Origin: Phycisphaerae bacterium
GTDB taxonomy: Bacteria; Planctomycetota; Phycisphaerae; UBA1845; DATKUK01
NCBI GenBank assembly: GCA_035530655.1
Contig: DATKUK010000098.1
Span: 4,652 to 68,651 of the forward strand
DNA length: 64,000 bases
Reading direction: 5' to 3'
How positions within the stretch are numbered: the stretch's first letter is position 1; the number at the start of each line of letters is the position of its first letter. The notes beneath the pieces were generated by a model. That model was not told where the DNA came from, ran no database searches, and saw only the letters and a program-made list of their open reading frames with translations. The position numbers were made by a program, and so were the translations under genes. Shown here one piece after another: positions 974 through 17,797 of this stretch.

Positions 974-2050
974 CTACGGCGACATCGGCTCCTCGGGCGC
1001 GACGGTGCGGGTTTGGCGGGGGGCCTCGGCGCTGATGCCGTGTAGCTGGAGCAAGTCGGCGGGCGACTCGGGCTGTCCGGTGCGAGCGGAAAGGTAGGCT
1101 GATTCGATCACGGCCATGGTCGGCAGTTGCTGCCCGCCTGTCGGCAACTCCGGGGGGCGACCTTCGGTGACCGCCTCGATCACTGCGTGAGTTTGTGCGA
1201 CCATCGCGCGCACAGGCTCGTGCGGACAGGTAACCGACGTCCGACCGTCGGCATCGATCAGTGCAAGACCGTTCGTATCGATTGTTGCGCTGCCCGTCGA
1301 GCCGTGCAGTCGAAACGAATCCTCCTGCGGTTGGCTGAGCCAGCTTGCCGCGATCAGTCCGGTTACCCCCTTGGGGTACCGCAACATGACCGAGGCGGTA
1401 TCTTCGGTGTCGTAACTCTGCGCGGTCTGCGTTCTGGCCAGACGGGTGGCGGTGGCCATCACCTCGTCGGGTAAGCCGAGCAAAGCGACGATCCGATCGA
1501 CCGCTTCGTAAGCCTGGTTCAGCAACACCCCGCCGCCAGCCCGGGCGCTGTCGCCCCGCCAGCCGAGAGGATCCTGAAGATGGCTCACCACCGCCGCCCG
1601 CGCCAGAAACAGCCTGCCCAACTCGTCGAGATGCGAGACCATCGCTTGATATCTCGGATCCACCCGCCACGCCGTGCCGACCAGCAGCATCCGGTCGGCC
1701 CGCTGGAAGGCGTCGACCAACCCCACCGCCTGCTCAAAACCCCGCGCCAGAGGCGGCAAACGCCACACGTGCGCCCCGCGACCGGCCGCCAGCAGGGCAT
1801 AATCGTTGCCGGCGAAAGGCGGGGCGGTAATCATCAGCAGATCACACTGTGATTGAACGACCAGTTGGCGGTAGTCGTCGAATAACTCGTATGTGCCCAG
1901 CCGGCTTGCCTCAGCCAGGACGTCGGCGCTGCGGTCCGCGACGGCCGTGACCCGTACCCGGGGCTCGGCCAGAAGGGCGCGCAGCAACGGCTCGCCCGCA
2001 CCCGACACACCCATCAGTGACACACTCACGTCGGCCATGCGACAGCTCAA
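974..2050 (-). CDS. Gfo/Idh/MocA family oxidoreductase
   Basis: 358-aa ORF. N-terminal Rossmann-like segment (VSLMGVSGAGEPLLRALL...VTAVADRS) and the overall layout are typical of Gfo/Idh/MocA. The start could be ATG 2038 (MADVSV) rather than 2050. Confidence 0.75.
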   Translation of the reverse strand: MSCRMADVSVSLMGVSGAGEPLLRALLAEPRVRVTAVADRSADVLAEASRLGTYELFDDYRQLVVQSQCDLLMITAPPFAGNDYALLAAGRGAHVWRLPPLARGFEQAVGLVDAFQRADRMLLVGTAWRVDPRYQAMVSHLDELGRLFLARAAVVSHLQDPLGWRGDSARAGGGVLLNQAYEAVDRIVALLGLPDEVMATATRLARTQTAQSYDTEDTASVMLRYPKGVTGLIAASWLSQPQEDSFRLHGSTGSATIDTNGLALIDADGRTSVTCPHEPVRAMVAQTHAVIEAVTEGRPPELPTGGQQLPTMAVIESAYLSARTGQPESPADLLQLHGISAEAPRQTRTVAPEEPMSP

Positions 2051-2139
2051 CTCTCCGAACAGGTCTGCCGTGCTTAGCCTCGCATGGCTGGATTGTCAAC
2101 ATGCCTAAGGCCCACCGACGTGGACGCCTTGATGTGCGC

Positions 2140-2167
2140 AAAAAAAAGGCGACTGGTGGCTGTCGCC
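2140..2167 (-). terminator. Rho-independent terminator (minus strand)
   Basis: The minus strand reads GGCGAC-AGCCACCA-GTCGCC followed by TTTTTTTT. This is a perfect 6-bp stem (2148-2153 / 2162-2167) plus a U8 tract (2140-2147). Confidence 0.75.
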
Positions 2168-3215
2168 CGTTGGGCTCTCCAGAGCCTTCACGCCAGTTAC
2201 TCGGCTGTGGCCGTTGCCGGCCCTTGCCGTTCCCTCATGGGCTTGGTCCGCCGTCTAGAGTTTCCCGCCCGGGCAGTATCGGCCGTATTGCTTAGCCGAT
2301 CCCGCTCCGCCGTCACTTGCGCTCGGCCCTGCGGTCTTCCTGCCAAGCGGACGTGCGGGCTCGTTTCCAAGTTCCCGCAACTTCCTCTTTTCGGCTTGGG
2401 CCGCCCTTCAGGGCATTTCCCAACTGGCGCTTGCCAGCTTTCCGCTAGCGGTCGCCGCTGATTAGAACGGTTTCCGCAGGCGGCTTGCCGGCGGCTCTCC
2501 TGAGCTTTGGTCCCCTTCAGCACATTCAAGGTCACCGGATCCGGTTCACACGGGCTTGGCGAGCCCGCCACCTTCCGCCCTCAGGGTTTGGTTACCCTCT
2601 CGACGGTTTACTCCCCGGCGACCCCAGTCGGCCATTTTCAGGCCGACGGCGCTACTGGGGTTGCGCCCTTCGGAGCGTTCCCCTCTCCGGCGGTACCACG
2701 GCGTTTCCGCCGCGCTGACCCACACGCCGTTAGCCGCCGCGTGCCAACCGACGGGGCAAACCCCGCCTGCAGCAAACGGCCAGCCCGACCTCTGGGCTTT
2801 GGTCCGCCGGGGAGTCCCTCGCGCCCGGCCGGGGTGTTTAGCTCCAGCCGGCGCCGGCTGCTCCCTTGGGCTTTCGCCTTTCTAGGGGTTACTCACCGCC
2901 CGCCTTTCCGCCTTCGGCGGATCCTCTCACGCACTTGGCGTCCGCCGGTTTGCACCAACGAACCGCCTGCGCCTCAGAGTATCAATCGGCGGCCGGTTAG
3001 CCCCGACTACGTGAGCCGGGGCGCCCCTTCTAAGGTTCTGCACCTCTGTGGGTCCTGGCAATTCGGGCACAGCCATTTCGGGCTATGTGTTCACCTCGCG
3101 AGTGCTCAGCGTTACCGCTGAACGCGGCTCGCTCTTTGAAATGGCTTCGGCCCTGCCGGAGCTTACCGGAACCTCAGAACGGTGCCGAGCGAAACAGCTC
3201 TCAGCCGCAATCTAA
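2140..3215 (-). ncRNA. Candidate large (~1.07 kb) highly structured non-coding RNA of unassigned family
   Basis: A 1.36-kb gap (2051..3414) has no credible ORF; the only ORFs are P/R/S/G-rich shadows. The minus-strand reading is packed with short GC stems capped by GNRA or similar loops: GGCCG-GCAA-CGGCC, CCGCC-GAAG-GCGG, GGCTC-TGGA-GAGCC, CTGGC-AAGC-GCCAG, GCGGAAACCG, GGCGAAAGCC, GGGAAATGCCC. It contains recurrent CCAAGCC/ACCAAAGCCC motifs and ends at the terminator at 2140-2167. The 5' end is uncertain. Confidence 0.55.
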
Positions 3216-3243
3216 ACACTACACCATGTTTGGCAGGAGTCAA
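3216..3243 (-). promoter_or_regulatory. Possible sigma70-type promoter for the candidate ncRNA
   Basis: Minus strand TTGACT (3243..3238), a 16-nt spacer, then TAGTGT (3221..3216). The -10 is weak; an alternative TAGATT lies a few nt downstream. Confidence 0.25.
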
Positions 3244-3414
3244 ATCAAGCGGATTGGATTTGGACTTTTCACAGCAGGCCATGTGGCACTTACGGCAACC
3301 CAGGACGCTGTAAGCTTCGGCGCCCACGAATATACGGGAACCACCTGTGCGCGCAGCCAATTCGTCGTAAAGTCCGAAAAATCTCTACCAAGGCGATAGA
3401 ATTTCGCCGGGCTG

Positions 3415-4746
3415 CTAGAGCAGGTTGGCCGCCAACTCCGCCAGCTTGCCGCGTTCGCCCTTTACAAGCTGCACATGAGCGGCCAACAGCTCGGCTCGGA
3501 AGTGGTTGACAAGATAGTTGAACCCGTTGCTGCCCGAATCGACGTAGGGATTGTCGATCTGCCAGGGGTCGCCGGTCAGCACGACCTTACTGCCCTCGGA
3601 GAGGCGGGTTATAACCGTCTTGATTTCGAGGGGGGTGAGGTTCTGCGCTTCGTCCACCACGACGAATTGATGGGCGATGTTGCGGCCACGGATGTAGCTG
3701 AGTGGTTGGACCTCGATCGTGCCGGCCTCCCATAATTCGCGCCAGTTTTTGCGCCCGGCGATGTCGCCGGCTGAGTCGAACAGGAACTCCAGCGTATCGA
3801 ACACCGGCTGCAGCCATGGGTAGAGCTTTTGCTCGATACCTCCGGGCAAATGGCCGAGATCTCTGCCCAGTGGCACGGTGGGACGACAGACCAGCAGACC
3901 CTTGTAGTTGCGACTGCGCAAGACGGCATGCAGCCCCGCCGCCAAGGCAAGAAGGCTCTTGCCTGTTCCCGCCTTGCCCATGATGGTGACCAACTGGATC
4001 CGGGTGTCGCGCAGCGCGTCCATCGCATAGTACTGCTGCTGATTGCGCGGGCGGATGCCGCACAGACCTTCCCCACTCTCCAGCAGAGCCTGGACCTGCC
4101 TGCAGTCGGCACTGATCCGCCCCAGCGCGGTGCGCCGGGCCCCGTCGCGGGGCTTCAATAAGACATACTCGTTGGGGTAGGCGACCACGCCTTCGGGCAG
4201 GGCGATGCTGCCGGCCGAGTCGAACTTTTCGACGTCCTCGCGCGCCAGGGCAAGCTCGATCTGCCCGGTGTATAGATCGCTCAGACCCACCCGGTCGGAC
4301 TCGTAGTCCTGGGTGCGCAGGCCCATGGCGTCGGCCCGTATCCGCAGGTTGATGTCTTTCGTGACGATGATGACGGGCACGTCGGGCTCGTCCTGCTGGA
4401 CGGTCTGGGCGATCCGCAGGATGTTGTCGTCGGCCAGCGTCGGGCGTGTTGTCCCCAGTTGGTCCATGCCGTCGCAGTACACCTTCAGCGTGCCGCCGCC
4501 GGGCAGCTTCACGCCGGCGGCCAGACCACCGGCTGCGGTGCCCCGAAGCTCGTCCAGCAGGCGCGATACCTGCCGGGCATTCTGGCCGCGATCCGACATC
4601 TCGCGCTTGAACTGGTCGATCTCCTGGATCACGTCGATAGGGATGATCACGGTGTTGTCCGCGAAGTGCGTCAACGACGTGGGATCGTGCAGCAGCACGT
4701 TGGCGTCCAGGACGTAGTTCTTACGCATGGAATTAAGTATAGACAC
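3415..4746 (-). CDS. PhoH-like ATPase with N-terminal PIN domain (YlaK-type)
   Basis: 443 aa. N-terminal PIN-like YVLDANVLLHDP...IPIDVIQEID. PhoH P-loop IMGKAGTGKSLLALA and Walker B FVVVDEAQNLTP. Confidence 0.85.
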   Translation of the reverse strand: MSILNSMRKNYVLDANVLLHDPTSLTHFADNTVIIPIDVIQEIDQFKREMSDRGQNARQVSRLLDELRGTAAGGLAAGVKLPGGGTLKVYCDGMDQLGTTRPTLADDNILRIAQTVQQDEPDVPVIIVTKDINLRIRADAMGLRTQDYESDRVGLSDLYTGQIELALAREDVEKFDSAGSIALPEGVVAYPNEYVLLKPRDGARRTALGRISADCRQVQALLESGEGLCGIRPRNQQQYYAMDALRDTRIQLVTIMGKAGTGKSLLALAAGLHAVLRSRNYKGLLVCRPTVPLGRDLGHLPGGIEQKLYPWLQPVFDTLEFLFDSAGDIAGRKNWRELWEAGTIEVQPLSYIRGRNIAHQFVVVDEAQNLTPLEIKTVITRLSEGSKVVLTGDPWQIDNPYVDSGSNGFNYLVNHFRAELLAAHVQLVKGERGKLAELAANLL

Positions 4747-11565: not shown

Positions 11566-12262
11566 CGCCGCTTCCTGCCGGCTCGATCGAGCCGACCAAC
11601 TTGCCGTCGCGCAGCACGTAGATGCGATCGGCTTGGGCCGCCGCGGCCGCCTCGTGCGAAACCATCACCACAGTCTTGCCCATCTCGTCGGCCAGCCGAC
11701 GCAGGAGGCGCCAGATCTCAACGGCGTTCGTCGAATCGAGATTGCCGGTCGGTTCGTCGGCCAGGATAACAGCCGGGTCGTTCAGCAGCGCCCGCCCAAT
11801 GGCCACCCGTTGCCGTTCGCCGCCCGACATGGCGTCGGGACGATGGCTCGCGCGGTTCCCCAGATGGACCAACTCGATCAGCTCGTCGGCGCGGCGACGA
11901 ATCTCCGCCTTGGGCGCCCCGTCGATCAGAAGAGGCAACACCACGTTCTCGCGAGCCGTCAGCGAGGGCAAGAGGTTGTAGTCCTGGAAGATGATCCCCA
12001 GTCGACGACGGCGAAAGAGCGTCCGCTCGCGGTCGCTGAGGGCGCTCAGATCGTGCCCCTCCACCCATACGCTGCCGCCGCTGGGCACGTCGAGCCCGCC
12101 CGCAAGGTGCAGCAACGTGCTCTTGCCCGAGCCGCTGGCGCCCATGACGGCGACAAACTCGCCCTTGCCCACCGAGAGCGAAACGCCCCGCAAGGCGCGG
12201 ACCACCTCCGATCCGGCGCGGTAGTCCTTACTGAGCTCGCGAATGTCCAGCACCATTGGCAT
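11522..12262 (-). CDS. ABC transporter ATP-binding protein (MacB/LolD type)
   Basis: Start moved to ATG 12262 (MPMVLDIRELSKDY). Walker A GASGSGKST, signature MSGGERQRVAIGRAL, Walker B ILADEPTGNLD. The 3' end overlaps the permease start by 44 nt. Confidence 0.85.
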   Translation of the reverse strand: MPMVLDIRELSKDYRAGSEVVRALRGVSLSVGKGEFVAVMGASGSGKSTLLHLAGGLDVPSGGSVWVEGHDLSALSDRERTLFRRRRLGIIFQDYNLLPSLTARENVVLPLLIDGAPKAEIRRRADELIELVHLGNRASHRPDAMSGGERQRVAIGRALLNDPAVILADEPTGNLDSTNAVEIWRLLRRLADEMGKTVVMVSHEAAAAAQADRIYVLRDGKLVGSIEPAGSGDATLVSNRYQELAG

Positions 12263-12412
12263 ACGACCCGCAAAGCTTACCACCGGTCGGGACGATCCGC
12301 CAATTCCCTCGCCTCGACCGTACAGCGCACGCCAAGCCGATTTGTCAGGGGTCTCGTGGCCACCTATAATCGGCGGCCTGGAAACGATACCTCGGTTCAA
12401 CGCAACCCAGTC

Positions 12413-13282
12413 ATGAAGATCGTTGCCACAGCAGACCTCCACTACAACATCGCGCGCAGCAAACAGTCCGCCGAGCAACTTGCCGGTGAGCTTATCGAGA
12501 TCGCACCCGACGTTCTGATCCTCGTGGGCGACCTGGCGGGCAAGCGCCTGGACGTGCTGGCACACTGCTTTGCCCTATTCGAGCCGCTGGGATGTCCCCG
12601 ACTTTACGTACCCGGCAACCACGAGCTTTGGGCCCTTCCCGGGCAGGACTCGCTGGACCGCTACGAACGTCTCCTGCCGCAGACCTGCCGCGATTGCGGT
12701 GTACACTACCTCGACGCCGCACCGTTCGTCCTCAACCGCATCGCCTTCGTCGGGAACGTTGGCTGGTATGACTATTCGTTCCAGTCTCGGCGTCTGCACG
12801 TGCCGGAGCGATTCTACCGGGCCAAGGTTGCACCCGGCGCCGCCAGGGCCCTGCCCCAATACCGCCATCTCGTCGAGGGCTGCGACGATCTGGGCGACGG
12901 ACTGCTACAGATTTCGACCAGATGGATGGACGGCGTCCATGTAACCATGGACCTGGATGACAGGCAGTTTCTTTCCCACCTGATCGATCGCATGACCAGG
13001 CACCTGTCCGAAGCCGCTTCGCAGGCCGATCAGATCGTCGCGGCCGTTCATCATCTTCCCTTCGTCGAACTCGTGCGGTATACGGACCGGGACAACTGGG
13101 AATTCGCCAACGCCTACATGGGCAGCGGACGTCTCGGCGAAGCACTGCTGGCCGAGCCGAAGGTCCGCTACGTCTTCTGCGGCCACAGTCATCTAGCTGG
13201 ACGGGTGACCAAGGAGCATCTGACGTGCATCAACATCGGTTCAACCTACACCCACAAACGCTACGAGTTGCTCGAACTGTGA
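12413..13282 (+). CDS. Metallophosphoesterase (calcineurin-like)
   Basis: Real start is ATG 12413 (MKIVATADLHYN). The motifs DLH, GDLAG, GNHE and GHSH occur in order. The upstream part of track ORF 11633..13282 is antisense to the ABC ATPase. Confidence 0.8.
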   Translation: MKIVATADLHYNIARSKQSAEQLAGELIEIAPDVLILVGDLAGKRLDVLAHCFALFEPLGCPRLYVPGNHELWALPGQDSLDRYERLLPQTCRDCGVHYLDAAPFVLNRIAFVGNVGWYDYSFQSRRLHVPERFYRAKVAPGAARALPQYRHLVEGCDDLGDGLLQISTRWMDGVHVTMDLDDRQFLSHLIDRMTRHLSEAASQADQIVAAVHHLPFVELVRYTDRDNWEFANAYMGSGRLGEALLAEPKVRYVFCGHSHLAGRVTKEHLTCINIGSTYTHKRYELLEL

Positions 13283-17458: not shown

Positions 17459-17797
17459 CTACCAGCGCCGCCCGCGCCCGCCGCCGGACCCGCCACCGGG
17501 CCCGCCGCGTCCGCGCCCGCCACCGCCACCGCCACCGCCACCGCCACGGCTGGTCTTGGGTCGCGCTTCGTTGACGGTGAGGGCCCGTCCGGCGATCTCT
17601 TTGCCGTTAAGGCCGTCTATCGCGGCCTTGGCTGCCGCCGAGTCGGACATCTCGACAAACCCGAAGCCGCGGAGACGGCCGGTTTCGCGATCGGTGATCA
17701 GGTTGACACTGTCCACGTCACCATACTCGGCGAACAGTTGTCTTACCTCCTCCTCGGTTGCCTCGTACGAGAGGTTACCCACATAAATATTGGCCAT
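17459..17797 (-). CDS. RRM-type RNA-binding protein with Gly/Arg-rich tail
   Basis: ATG 17797 with GGAGA RBS. RNP2 IYVGNL and RNP1 RGFGFVEM. The C-terminal tail is GGGGGGGGGGRGRGGPGGGSGGGRGRRW. Confidence 0.9.
   Translation of the reverse strand: MANIYVGNLSYEATEEEVRQLFAEYGDVDSVNLITDRETGRLRGFGFVEMSDSAAAKAAIDGLNGKEIAGRALTVNEARPKTSRGGGGGGGGGGRGRGGPGGGSGGGRGRRW

Follow-up and report, generated by a model that had tools for sequence, protein, structure and literature searches.

Between the PIN-PhoH gene (3415-4746, minus strand) and the GFO/IDH/MocA oxidoreductase gene (974-2050, minus strand) of the window, i.e. the whole stretch of 64,000 nucleotides that was analysed, lies a gap of 1,364 bp, and the question is what such an interval encodes. 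A preliminary description had seen no plausible CDS in it and had proposed an independent transcript of an undescribed or at least unassigned family of large structured RNAs. The gap is real, and comparison of indels, codon positions and translations with 112 relatives revealed no conserved CDS in it. The proposed RNA family is supported too, and none of the four results that had been named in advance as speaking against it (a confident match to a known family, an intact CDS in relatives, lack of a transcript, lack of covariation together with ordinary folding energy) was obtained. We consider it highly probable, at roughly 85%, that the minus strand from 3208 to 2147 is a stand-alone gene for a highly structured and very abundant ncRNA of about 1,062 nt that belongs to an uncatalogued family and is, as far as found, the first example of it.

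The extent of the mature RNA (2147..3208, minus strand) follows from metatranscriptome contigs, a family HMM and contigs of relatives that consist of this RNA alone. Its 5' end lies near G3208 and its 3' end is the final base of the terminal helix P1; the primary transcript probably extends into the subsequent U-run, to about 2139. The family HMM matches 3193-2160 (E 1e-151), which is the sole copy within the 64-kb window. The 4,227 covariance models of Rfam 15 gave no match at gathering score in the window or in the 38 loci with relatives that were scanned (18 genomic loci with homologues and 20 diverse members). Permissive scans (E<=5-10) of the window and the 20 diverse members produced nothing consistent, only three unrelated matches at chance level (L31 leader, E 1.5; M23, E 5.1; suhB, E 2.4), none of which recurs. 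A full-text literature search, which was incomplete in that subscription journals might hold such a report, found no description of this 1-kb RNA. The Planctomycetes motif Rhodopirellula-1 (Weinberg 2010) is a cis-regulatory candidate and was rejected as the 1-kb RNA, and in a 2026 preprint on intergenic features both Planctomycetota and PhoH are absent.

Exact contigs from soil metatranscriptomes cover 2148-2967, 2169-2979, 2193-3168 and 2336-3200 and together span 2148–3200. Contig depth, which is a poor measure of expression, is about 1,000-1,200 for the RNA (three soil metatranscriptomes gave 1,035-1,216, X8 gave 24), 0 for the flanking genes and 2-6 for mRNA fragments across 20 kb of the same genome. 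The independent transcript that had been postulated is thus found alone, with flanks at 0-6. DNA depth is flat at about 15-18, so the RNA gene is single-copy. The contigs carry no strand information; the minus strand is deduced from the promoter, the U-run, the G-U pairs, the purine skew and the folding energy. In the four distant metatranscriptomes examined the summed word depth reaches up to 1.25 million at the core 2577-2604 (more than 1 million in one marine-sediment library), and the sole site of this core that varies at 3% of depth or more is 2578. Chance similarity to rRNA was rejected as the source of this depth since the sequences flanking those contigs fit the family consensus. The stand-alone contigs of relatives, about 1,040 nt long, start in the 5' strand of P1 and end at its 3' strand, and one of them (L073) ends in ...CACGCCGC, followed by sequencing adapter. 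Three contigs show a head-to-tail junction. A circular RNA as main form was rejected, because nearly all stand-alone contigs begin and end at P1 and one carries the terminal adapter, which means that the main form is linear.

Judged from its sequence, the RNA is served by a sigma-70-like promoter of its own (TTGACT-16-TAGTGT, minus strand), with the predicted -35 box TTGACT at 3238..3243 and the predicted -10 box TAGTGT at 3216..3221, 16 nt further on and about 7 nt before G3208. Relatives carry TTTGCC, TTGACT or TTGCAT at the same distance and TATGTT, TATACT, TATAGT or TAGATT as -10 boxes. The promoter suggested earlier at 3216-3243 coincides with these conserved boxes, and a simple consensus promoter scan did not call it. 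About 30 nt upstream of the -35 box an element conserved among 28 aligned DNA loci is found (CCUGCUGUGAAAAG, 3265..3278, minus strand), which in the family reads CCTGTGA or forms the palindrome TTGACAnnnTGTCAA. The window lacks the complete palindrome; the element is a possible regulator site.

The two ends of the RNA are joined by P1, an 18-bp helix positioned directly before the U-run (RNAduplex, 29 loci). Its 5' strand (3186..3208, minus strand; GCGGCUG aga GCUG uu UCGCUCG) pairs with 2170-2147, the 3' strand (2147..2170, minus strand; CGGGCGA CAGC cac CAGUCGC). Both sides change in 8 of 12 pairs of this helix (helix 1 of alignment A1) and in all six pairs evaluated in an alignment of 113 sequences. 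A run of eight U residues at 2139..2146 (minus strand) constitutes the termination signal, and a U-run was detected after the 3' strand of P1 in 32 of 41 loci with flanking DNA. In the window an alternative to P1 exists as a local hairpin, GGCGAC/GUCGCC (2167-2162/2151-2146), and the region qualifies as an intrinsic terminator with a 7-pair stem (five G-C pairs) and T8. This hairpin with its U8 had already been described and is present; what did not stand is its reading as a plain hairpin, as its 3' arm also pairs with the 5' end of the RNA. Only 12 of the 32 relatives have a qualifying local hairpin before the U-run, and otherwise the stem is the long-range P1.

The minus strand is purine-rich and folds with -551 kcal/mol versus -494 for its complement. 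Against 40 dinucleotide shuffles the MFE z-score is -8.0 for the minus strand, -4.3 for the complement and -2.1 for neighbouring CDS, so that the folding energy lies far below that of shuffled sequence. Covariation gives overwhelming support to a conserved fold. With 22 genomic sequences 253 pairs were obtained, 179 of them compensatory; with 113 non-redundant members (median identity 68%) there are 307 predicted pairs, 237 of which show compensatory changes. In the latter alignment 91.9% of the cells are canonical, versus 36-43% when the structure is slid. With 92.7% of cells paired, both sides change in 181 pairs, versus 98 +/- 5 after shuffling (0 of 500 shuffles reach 181) and 90-96 in the slid control. 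When covariation was scored blind to structure (MIp), 40 of the top 50 pairs were predicted pairs and 175 of the 307 were reciprocal best partners; this analysis yielded no convincing sign of a pseudoknot, i.e. of long-range Watson-Crick pairing beyond the nested fold. The compensatory pairs exceed both the shuffled and the slid controls, and by this general criterion the region is a structured ncRNA. Several hairpins that had been picked by eye belong to the conserved fold according to covariation (GGCCG-GCAA-CGGCC, CCGCC-GAAG-GCGG, GUCGGC...GCCGAC and AUCGGC...GCCGAU), whereas GGCUC-UGGA-GAGCC, CUGGC-AAGC-GCCAG, GGCGAAAGCC and GGGAAAUGCCC each form a strand of some long-range helix or a junction linker, and the same holds for the supposed CCCCA/UGGGG extension.

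The body of the RNA comprises five domains around a central junction with purine-rich linkers (AGAA, CGAAA, GCAA, ACCAAA and CCAA). Ten helices contain the same module: four to five conserved base pairs, a symmetric 3x3 internal loop and four to five more pairs. The outer positions of the loop are A.A or G.G and covary (A.A<->G.G), the middle position is variable, and seven of the ten modules start 4 bp from a junction. All coordinates of domains, mapped to the window from the 113-sequence consensus, refer to the minus strand. Domain 1 (3040..3185) is closed by GCACC/GGUGC (3185-3181 / 3044-3040) and contains a GUAA-capped hairpin (3118-3109) and the conserved 9-nt loop GAACACAUA. Domain 2 (2877..3035) is closed by CCUU-AGA-AGGGG / CCCCU-AGA-AAGG with loop no. 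1 (3031-3029 with 2883-2881) and has loop no. 2 further inside (2975-2973 with 2930-2928). Its positions 3029/2883 exchange A.A for G.G (58 AA, 54 GG) and with a MIp of 0.98 represent the strongest pair outside the predicted structure. Domain 3 (2665..2871), closed by GCCC-AAG-GGAGC / GCUCC-GAA-GGGC with loop no. 3 (2867-2865 with 2671-2669), includes loop no. 4 (2792-2790 with 2725-2723) and a GAAA-capped hairpin (2709-2702).

Domain 4 (2512..2660) is closed by CCCC-AGU-AGCGC / GUGCU-GAA-GGGG with loop no. 5 (2656-2654 with 2518-2516) and contains the hairpin GUCGGC...GCCGAC (2647-2627), in which 2641/2633 exchange GA for AG, as well as an 11-bp helix (2624-2614 / 2539-2529). The most conserved hairpin of the family, 32 nt at 2575..2606, reads CCGUC-GAG-AGGGU-AACCA-ACCCU-GAG-GGCGG and comprises loop no. 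6 (2601-2599 with 2582-2580) and the apical AACCA (2593-2589), closed by U2594-A2588. Its closing helix covaries (UG/CG/UA and CG/GC/UA). The AACCA hairpin is identical in all members found, and its 20-mer 2600-2581 served as search key. Domain 5 (2174..2505) is closed by GCUC-AGG-AGAG / CUCU-GGA-GAGC with loop no. 7 (2501-2499 with 2180-2178); it has loops no. 8 (2409-2407 / 2238-2236), no. 9 (2391-2389 / 2256-2254) and no. 10 (2330-2328 / 2308-2306), a GCAA-capped hairpin (2221-2210) and, at the tip of one arm, a 36-nt insertion (2445..2480) that is present in the window and missing from most relatives (alignments A1 and fam95). No array of tandem repeats was found, only a 21-bp chance match, and the direct repeats that were detected are dispersed helix strands.

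The family was retrieved with one core string, the 20-mer 2600-2581, and consequently the invariance of this 20-mer among the fetched loci is given by construction. It matched 23 genomes, all of them (23/23) Planctomycetota and mostly Phycisphaerae, and full-length homologues are present in each. At least 120 metagenome contigs match as well, most of which are the RNA of about 1,040 nt alone. The carriers include many uncultured Phycisphaerae of soils and sediments. As far as seen, the RNA family is carried by Phycisphaerae-type Planctomycetota only; phage and plasmid collections gave no BLASTN match to the RNA and the IMG/VR viral collection no match to the core 20-mer. Encoding no protein, belonging to no catalogued family and being common to many uncultured Phycisphaerae, it seems to represent a new class among large bacterial RNAs.

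What such an RNA does can be approached from its anatomy, which tentatively suggests that it acts in trans through the shape into which it folds, serving as a stable scaffold with a long lifetime or as the RNA of a ribonucleoprotein. The ten purine loops would then be packing or docking modules, either for A-rich linkers or for a protein bound at several sites, and the AACCA hairpin could be a recognition site. P1 would shield both ends and in most members might also be the stem that triggers termination. The PIN-PhoH protein may be the processing or remodelling enzyme of the RNA or its regulated partner; being a helicase-nuclease fusion and a frequent neighbour, it points to RNA metabolism. 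Its gene (PhoH2-type; 3415..4746, minus strand; Pfam PIN_4 7e-31, PhoH 3.8e-48) is the next gene upstream and has the same orientation, an arrangement shared by 13 loci including the window; of the 20 loci with enough upstream DNA, 11 show it. Among clustered neighbouring ORFs annotated with Pfam it is the only recurrent neighbour, and the adjacency is seen throughout the diversity of the family. Some 45% of loci lack it and the other neighbours are heterogeneous; the link may therefore reflect no more than inherited gene order.

The scaffold reading has its nearest competitor in an RNA-only, self-assembling particle, in which the monomer would fold first and then join into homo-oligomers, with repeated purine loops and A/C-rich hairpin loops making contacts between copies. 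According to PMC12286853, ROOL, GOLLD and OLE form RNA-only homo-oligomers, and the 1-kb RNA is like them in being large, ornate and abundant and in having no protein gene as constant partner; its ten-fold repeated module and a number of conserved loops rich in A and C fit as well. We nevertheless regard this as rather unlikely, because no self-complementary (palindromic) loop was seen and similarity to ROOL, GOLLD or OLE is absent in both sequence and models. With ROOL and GOLLD it shares the format of a large ornate bacterial RNA with many conserved helices, but their models do not match, the 64-kb window contains no tRNA gene, and the phage context known from those RNAs is missing. OLE RNA (RF01071) is likewise large, intricately folded, highly conserved, very abundant, stand-alone and confined to one bacterial lineage. 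It works as a ribonucleoprotein with a kink-turn internal-loop motif for protein recognition (PMC9723947, PMC12054373). In contrast, the repeated motif here is a symmetric 3x3 homopurine loop, the length is about 1,060 nt versus ~600, the hosts are Planctomycetota instead of Bacillota, RF01071 is unmatched, and the neighbours are PIN-PhoH or unrelated genes and not oap genes.

That the modules hold PIN-PhoH as a decoy or antitoxin-like partner, from which it is freed when the RNA is degraded, appears still more doubtful. It would accord with the upstream, same-strand PIN-PhoH genes described above, with ten near-identical modules and with PIN domains being typical toxin nucleases (PMC5499597). 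It is at odds with the other neighbours in about 45% of loci and with the RNA having its own promoter and terminator. Moreover, PIN-PhoH proteins are, as far as is known, widespread in bacteria that lack the 1-kb RNA, and the tandem direct repeats beside a toxin gene that are typical of type III antitoxin RNAs were not found. Sponge RNAs (CsrB/RsmZ, CrcZ) are similar in having many copies of a short motif in one abundant RNA and in their A-rich single strands. Their GGA or A-rich motif resides in hairpin loops, whereas the repeat here is an internal loop with a variable middle within long-range helices, and the 1-kb RNA has three times their length and a much more strongly constrained structure.

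A cis-acting part of an mRNA, be it an extended 3' UTR of the PIN-PhoH mRNA or the leader of the gene downstream, is highly improbable, although both neighbours in the window are on the same strand as the RNA: the promoter is conserved even where PIN-PhoH is missing, a U-run follows the RNA, the downstream genes vary between loci, and transcript contigs end at the ends of the RNA with flanks at depth 0. There is equally very little chance that the RNA belongs to a selfish or mobile element, whether as a group II intron without an ORF, as a guide RNA linked to an IS, as a retron or as RNA carried by a prophage. Domains radiating from a central junction, ends that are brought together and a similar overall size do recall group II introns, and a few head-to-tail junction contigs exist. 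But the window contains one copy of the gene only, its DNA depth is that of the chromosome, and Pfam annotation of the window genes and of upstream neighbours revealed neither a reverse transcriptase nor a transposase or phage gene. Models for introns, omega-RNA and retrons are unmatched, like the phage, plasmid and viral collections. Group II domain V had not been recognised by eye, and the Intron_gpII and group-II-D1D4 models gave no match either. There is no conserved ORF and no intron-encoded protein, the transcript runs from a promoter to a terminator of its own and is not inserted in a gene, and its most conserved hairpin combines a symmetric 3x3 loop with an AACCA pentaloop.

A divergent or expanded universal RNA (RNase P RNA, tmRNA, SRP RNA, 6S RNA or an rRNA fragment) must be considered extremely improbable. 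Like RNase P RNA and tmRNA the 1-kb RNA is abundant and housekeeping-like, with its own promoter, ends paired in a terminal helix, a core of rRNA-like conservation and variable peripheral arms. However, it is two to three times longer than these, has a narrow taxonomic range and lacks their defining blocks. The failure to recognise RNase P, tmRNA or SRP RNA by eye was borne out by the Rfam models, which for these, for 6S RNA and for rRNA gave no match even at E<=10, and by ARAGORN, which found no tmRNA. A decayed gene or a real opposite-strand gene, such as the 204-codon frame at 2507-3121 (plus strand), has a practically negligible chance in spite of long stop-free plus-strand frames in most members (median 197 codons), since these reflect how rich in purines the RNA strand is, the stop-poor strand being simply its pyrimidine-rich complement, and an antisense CDS was rejected because 88% of the indels between the window and 112 relatives are out of frame (1,920 + 490 not multiples of three versus 313 multiples), there is neither codon-position periodicity nor an excess of third-position variation, translated similarity is confined to the nucleotide-conserved core, and compensatory base-pair changes amount to hundreds.

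To our knowledge, RNAs of more than about 500 nt whose structure is dense and conserved are very rare in bacteria, and each one we know of so far (RNase P RNA, tmRNA, group I/II introns, OLE, GOLLD, ROOL and HEARO) is a ribozyme, the core of a ribonucleoprotein or an RNA assembly. The 1-kb RNA is about twice the size of OLE and is backed by hundreds of covarying pairs. Structural and biochemical work can start from the ten-fold purine loop (A.A<->G.G), from the AACCA hairpin, which is nearly invariant, and from PIN-PhoH as recurrent neighbour. Its hosts belong to a poorly studied and mostly uncultured class, frequently met in soils and wetlands as well as in marine sediments and digesters. Given the very high depth in environmental RNA, sequences of this family are probably present without annotation in many metatranscriptomes; a family model would allow their annotation in environmental data and their removal from the "unknown" reads. 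It is conceivable, if doubtful, that we are dealing with a large RNA machine built on a so far undescribed homopurine 3x3 module, which would be a top-abundance non-ribosomal RNA of Phycisphaerae in soils and sediments and would function as the core of a ribonucleoprotein or of an RNA-only assembly, together with PIN-PhoH. If true, its standing would be comparable to that of OLE, ROOL or GOLLD, though it is unrelated to them.

The gap of 1,364 bp that separates the PIN-PhoH gene (3415-4746, minus strand; Pfam PIN_4 7e-31, PhoH 3.8e-48) from the gene of a GFO/IDH/MocA oxidoreductase (974-2050, minus strand) encodes, with a probability of about 0.95, an independent, highly structured and abundant non-coding RNA of an uncatalogued family that, as far as seen, occurs only in Phycisphaerae-type planctomycetes. 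This gap is rich in G+C and its minus strand is rich in purines (plus strand AT skew about -0.3, GC skew about -0.14), the RNA consisting of 35% G, 23% A, 27% C and 15% U. The folding energy of the minus strand is -551 kcal/mol compared with -494 for the complement, and against 40 dinucleotide-preserving shuffles the z-scores are -8.0 and -4.3, respectively, and -2.1 for a PIN-PhoH coding piece of equal length. Since purine skew, folding energy, shuffle z-scores and a terminator-like hairpin with T8 (2168-2139, minus strand) agree, the hairpin-dense structure recognized in the preliminary description is real and beyond chance. The window contains one copy of the RNA (family HMM, 3193-2160, E 1e-151); there is no tandem repeat array.

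On the minus strand a -35 box (TTGACT, 3243-3238) is followed after 16 nt by a -10 box (TAGTGT, 3221-3216) about 7 nt before G3208. Relatives possess TTTGCC/TTGACT and TATnnT at the same places even without a PIN-PhoH neighbour, so the promoter formerly regarded as possible has conserved counterparts. About 30 nt upstream of the -35 box lies another conserved element (3265-3278 in the window, minus strand; seen in the loci L001, L003, L004, L009, L014, L019, L021, L023, L084 and L120), which in many relatives forms the palindrome TTGACAnnnTGTCAA and in others, as in the window, comprises only CCTGTGA(A/G). Judged by its sequence it looks like a candidate site at which a dimeric regulator of this gene would bind.

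Both ends of the RNA pair in the helix P1, whose three segments (3208-3202 with 2153-2147, 3198-3195 with 2163-2160 and 3192-3186 with 2170-2164, minus strand) total 18 bp and covary (GCGACG/CGUCGC in most members, GCGGCUG/CAGUCGC in the window). A U8 run (2146-2139, minus strand) follows directly. Of the intrinsic terminator proposed previously, hairpin and T8 are present in the window, but the local hairpin GGCGAC/GUCGCC competes with P1. A U-run was detected in the 3' flank of 32 relatives, of which only 12 have a qualifying local hairpin before it, mostly a weak one. In the others the stem abutting the U-run is the long-range P1, and from these sequences we infer that family-wide the helix joining the two RNA ends would act as terminator stem. 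After the U-run about 27 of the 32 show (A)UGCGC (GCGCA at 2134-2138 in the window, minus strand), for which no obvious pairing partner was found in the RNA.

The five domains D1 (3185-3040), D2 (3035-2877), D3 (2871-2665), D4 (2660-2512) and D5 (2505-2174), all on the minus strand, are connected by the junction linkers AGAA, CGAAA, GCAA, ACCAAA and CCAA. The most conserved hairpin (2606-2575, minus strand; CCGUC-GAG-AGGGU-AACCA-ACCCU-GAG-GGCGG) belongs to D4 and its closing helix covaries. Among the hairpin caps are GNRA tetraloops (GUAA, GAAA, GCAA), tetraloops of the UNCG type and several A/C-rich loops that are conserved. An arm of D5 has at its tip a 36-nt insertion (2480-2445, minus strand) that most relatives lack. 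An 11-nt loop (2284-2294, in the hairpin 2300-2278) reads UAAGCAAUACG in the window and GAACCAAUAAG in most relatives, so that in these the AACCAA of the invariant hairpin loop recurs.

A symmetric 3x3 internal loop, bordered on both sides by 4-5 strongly conserved base pairs, is found in ten helices, among them those that close D2 to D5; typical strands are CCCU-ANG-AGGG, CUCU-GAA-GGGC and CUCG-AAG-AGAG. In seven of the ten this module starts 4 bp from a junction, in two 5 bp, and one runs on from another module. The outer loop positions oppose each other as A·A or G·G and switch together (AA/GG counts 58/54 at 3029/2883, 78/27 at 2601/2580, 44/43 at 2409/2236, 96/16 at 2328/2308 and 98/10 at 3031/2881), whereas at the middle position variation is free. 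Among the covariations outside the Watson-Crick structure, 3029/2883 ranks first (MIp 0.98). In comparative rRNA analysis such an A·A to G·G exchange signals a specific non-Watson-Crick homopurine pair.

For 22 genomic sequences RNAalifold predicted 253 pairs, and 179 of these show compensatory changes; by pair counting, 92.7% of cells were paired, both-side changes occurred in 181 pairs (98 ± 5 in shuffled controls, none of 500 reaching the observed value; 90-96 in slid ones) and the covariation score was 0.416 (0.19 shuffled, 0.08-0.12 slid). With 113 full-length members, left after removal of sequences at least 95% identical, 307 pairs are 91.9% canonical (36-43% slid), and 237 show compensatory types each seen at least twice. 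When all ~630,000 column pairs were ranked without reference to structure, by mutual information with average-product correction, predicted pairs made up 40 of the first 50 and 73 of the first 100, and 175 of the 307 are reciprocal best partners. Thus, the RNA passed both the covariation and the shuffled-energy checks suggested beforehand (237 compensatory pairs; z -8.0).

Relatives were gathered by the most conserved 20-mer, AGAGGGTAACCAAACCCTGA (window 2600-2581), which is present in 23 species-representative genomes, all of them MAGs of Planctomycetota and for the most part labelled Phycisphaerae, and in at least 120 further loci of JGI metagenome records. All 23 genomes contain a homologue (nhmmer E 1e-70 to 5e-20): in 20 the alignment spans most of ~1.1 kb, in one (L005) it spans about 700 nt, and the remaining two homologues are truncated where their contig ends. 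Median pairwise identity among the 113 members is 68%, and the window copy is 56-63% identical to every other one. Most JGI matches listed are contigs of 1,000-1,060 nt made of the RNA alone, which begin in the 5' strand of P1 and finish at its 3' strand; one terminates with CACGCCGC followed by Illumina adapter. These ends fix size and ends of the mature RNA. The majority of contigs is linear. Head-to-tail junctions were observed in L062 (~1036-1056), in L078 (~1045-1056; a perfect palindrome, GCAACTTTTC|GAAAAGTTGC) and in a contig of the run X14 joining window 2171 to 3192; they could represent a circular form of minor abundance, a product of ligation or template switching that arose at the blunt end of P1 when the library was made, or chimeric assembly. 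The locus L002 has a partial second copy of the last ~140 nt (3939-4081, E 1e-17), which is on the strand of the full gene and lies ~2.2 kb downstream of it.

With OLE, ROOL and GOLLD the window RNA shares large size, ornateness, abundance and the lack of a known function; with RNase P RNA and tmRNA it shares paired ends and an own promoter, and its wheel of domains resembles that of group II introns. Of the defining features of these six that were checked none was found, and we rate the RNA as a new class among the large ornate bacterial RNAs, themselves a loose group, the literature comparison being incomplete. A particle of the ROOL, GOLLD or OLE kind, oligomeric and made of RNA only, is rather unlikely. 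Less probable still is a decoy for PIN-PhoH. In 13 loci, that of the window among them, the gene directly upstream, on the strand of the RNA, is PIN-PhoH (55-60% identical to that of the window); of the 20 loci with enough upstream DNA, 11 have this arrangement. RNA identity in these loci (0.60-0.96, median 0.69) spans the whole diversity of the family, and loci without this neighbour are interspersed among them. Other upstream genes are mutually unrelated (aminotransferase, GDSL lipase, chemoreceptor, PAP2, FliD, SASA esterase, WYL protein, ribosomal protein S1), and downstream genes are not conserved.

A cis-regulatory UTR is very improbable. In four soil RNA libraries contigs identical to the window were found (2148-2967, 2169-2979, 2193-3168 and 2336-3200) at an assembler depth of ~1,035-1,216, or 24 in one very small library, contig depth being a rough abundance measure. 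Both flanking genes have depth 0 in these libraries, which bears out the independent transcript claimed in the preliminary description; a further 20 kb of the same genome gave few mRNA fragments at depth 2-6. As contigs are strandless, the transcribed strand (minus) is inferred, on the basis of promoter, U-run, purine skew and folding energy. Six soil metatranscriptomes contain 51-88% of the 31-mers of the RNA, and its exact sequence occurs in six soil DNA metagenomes. DNA depth is flat (~15-18), with one contig spanning the locus. Elsewhere in the window, a minority of the X1 soil DNA (depth 4.9 vs ~16) joins 11761 to 12881 without 1,119 bp, so that a coding region is polymorphic there for a deletion or insertion, and at 17517-17551 a (GCCACC)n simple repeat, a low-complexity coding repeat, breaks DNA contigs with a jump in depth (31-nt contig at depth 700). 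Contigs of the 5' domain (3012-3179) in the soil runs X9 and X10 have depth 2.6-43 compared with ~1,035-1,213 for 2148-2979, which could be due to differences between strains, to a break in the assembly or to partial decay at the 5' end; in X7 one contig of depth 1,216 covers both parts. In metatranscriptomes from marine sediment, estuary, sediment and rhizosphere, 20-29% of the 31-mers occur, together with hundreds of related contigs. Summed word depth at 2577-2604 reaches 1.25, 0.48 and 0.29 million in three of them, and a single site there varies at 3% of depth or more. Ribosomal RNA was ruled out as source of this depth, since the contig flanks match the family consensus and thus derive from relatives.

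A mobile-element RNA is equally improbable; the Pfam-annotated genes include no reverse transcriptase, transposase or phage gene, and phage, plasmid and viral collections gave no match to the RNA. A divergent form of a universal RNA is hardly credible. None of the 4,227 models of Rfam 15 reached its gathering score in the 64-kb window or in the 18 homologue-bearing genomic loci scanned, consistent with the unassigned family postulated before, and permissive scans of the region and 20 diverse members yielded just three unrelated chance-level matches; ARAGORN found no tRNA or tmRNA in the window. Full-text literature, of incomplete coverage, returned no description, even for the core sequence as text. 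A decayed or antisense gene is practically negligible: indels versus relatives in the longest plus-strand frame are mostly not divisible by three (1,920 and 490, compared with 313 divisible), this frame has no third-position excess of variation, and the absence of a plausible coding sequence noted at first reading is thereby supported. Translated similarity is limited to the nucleotide-conserved core. The stop-free plus-strand frame of 204 codons (2507-3121), antisense to the RNA, was rejected as a gene; most relatives have similar ones (median 197 codons), and it is a composition artefact, as the pyrimidine-rich complement of a purine-rich RNA is poor in stops.

Regarding its role, the following picture is tentative as a whole. 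The window RNA may be long-lived and act in trans by means of its fold, either as a scaffold or as the RNA of a ribonucleoprotein. Its ten purine loops would be packing or docking modules, the AACCA hairpin would be the recognition site and P1 would shield the RNA ends. PIN-PhoH, a nuclease-helicase fusion, may be the processing or remodelling enzyme of this RNA or its regulated partner.
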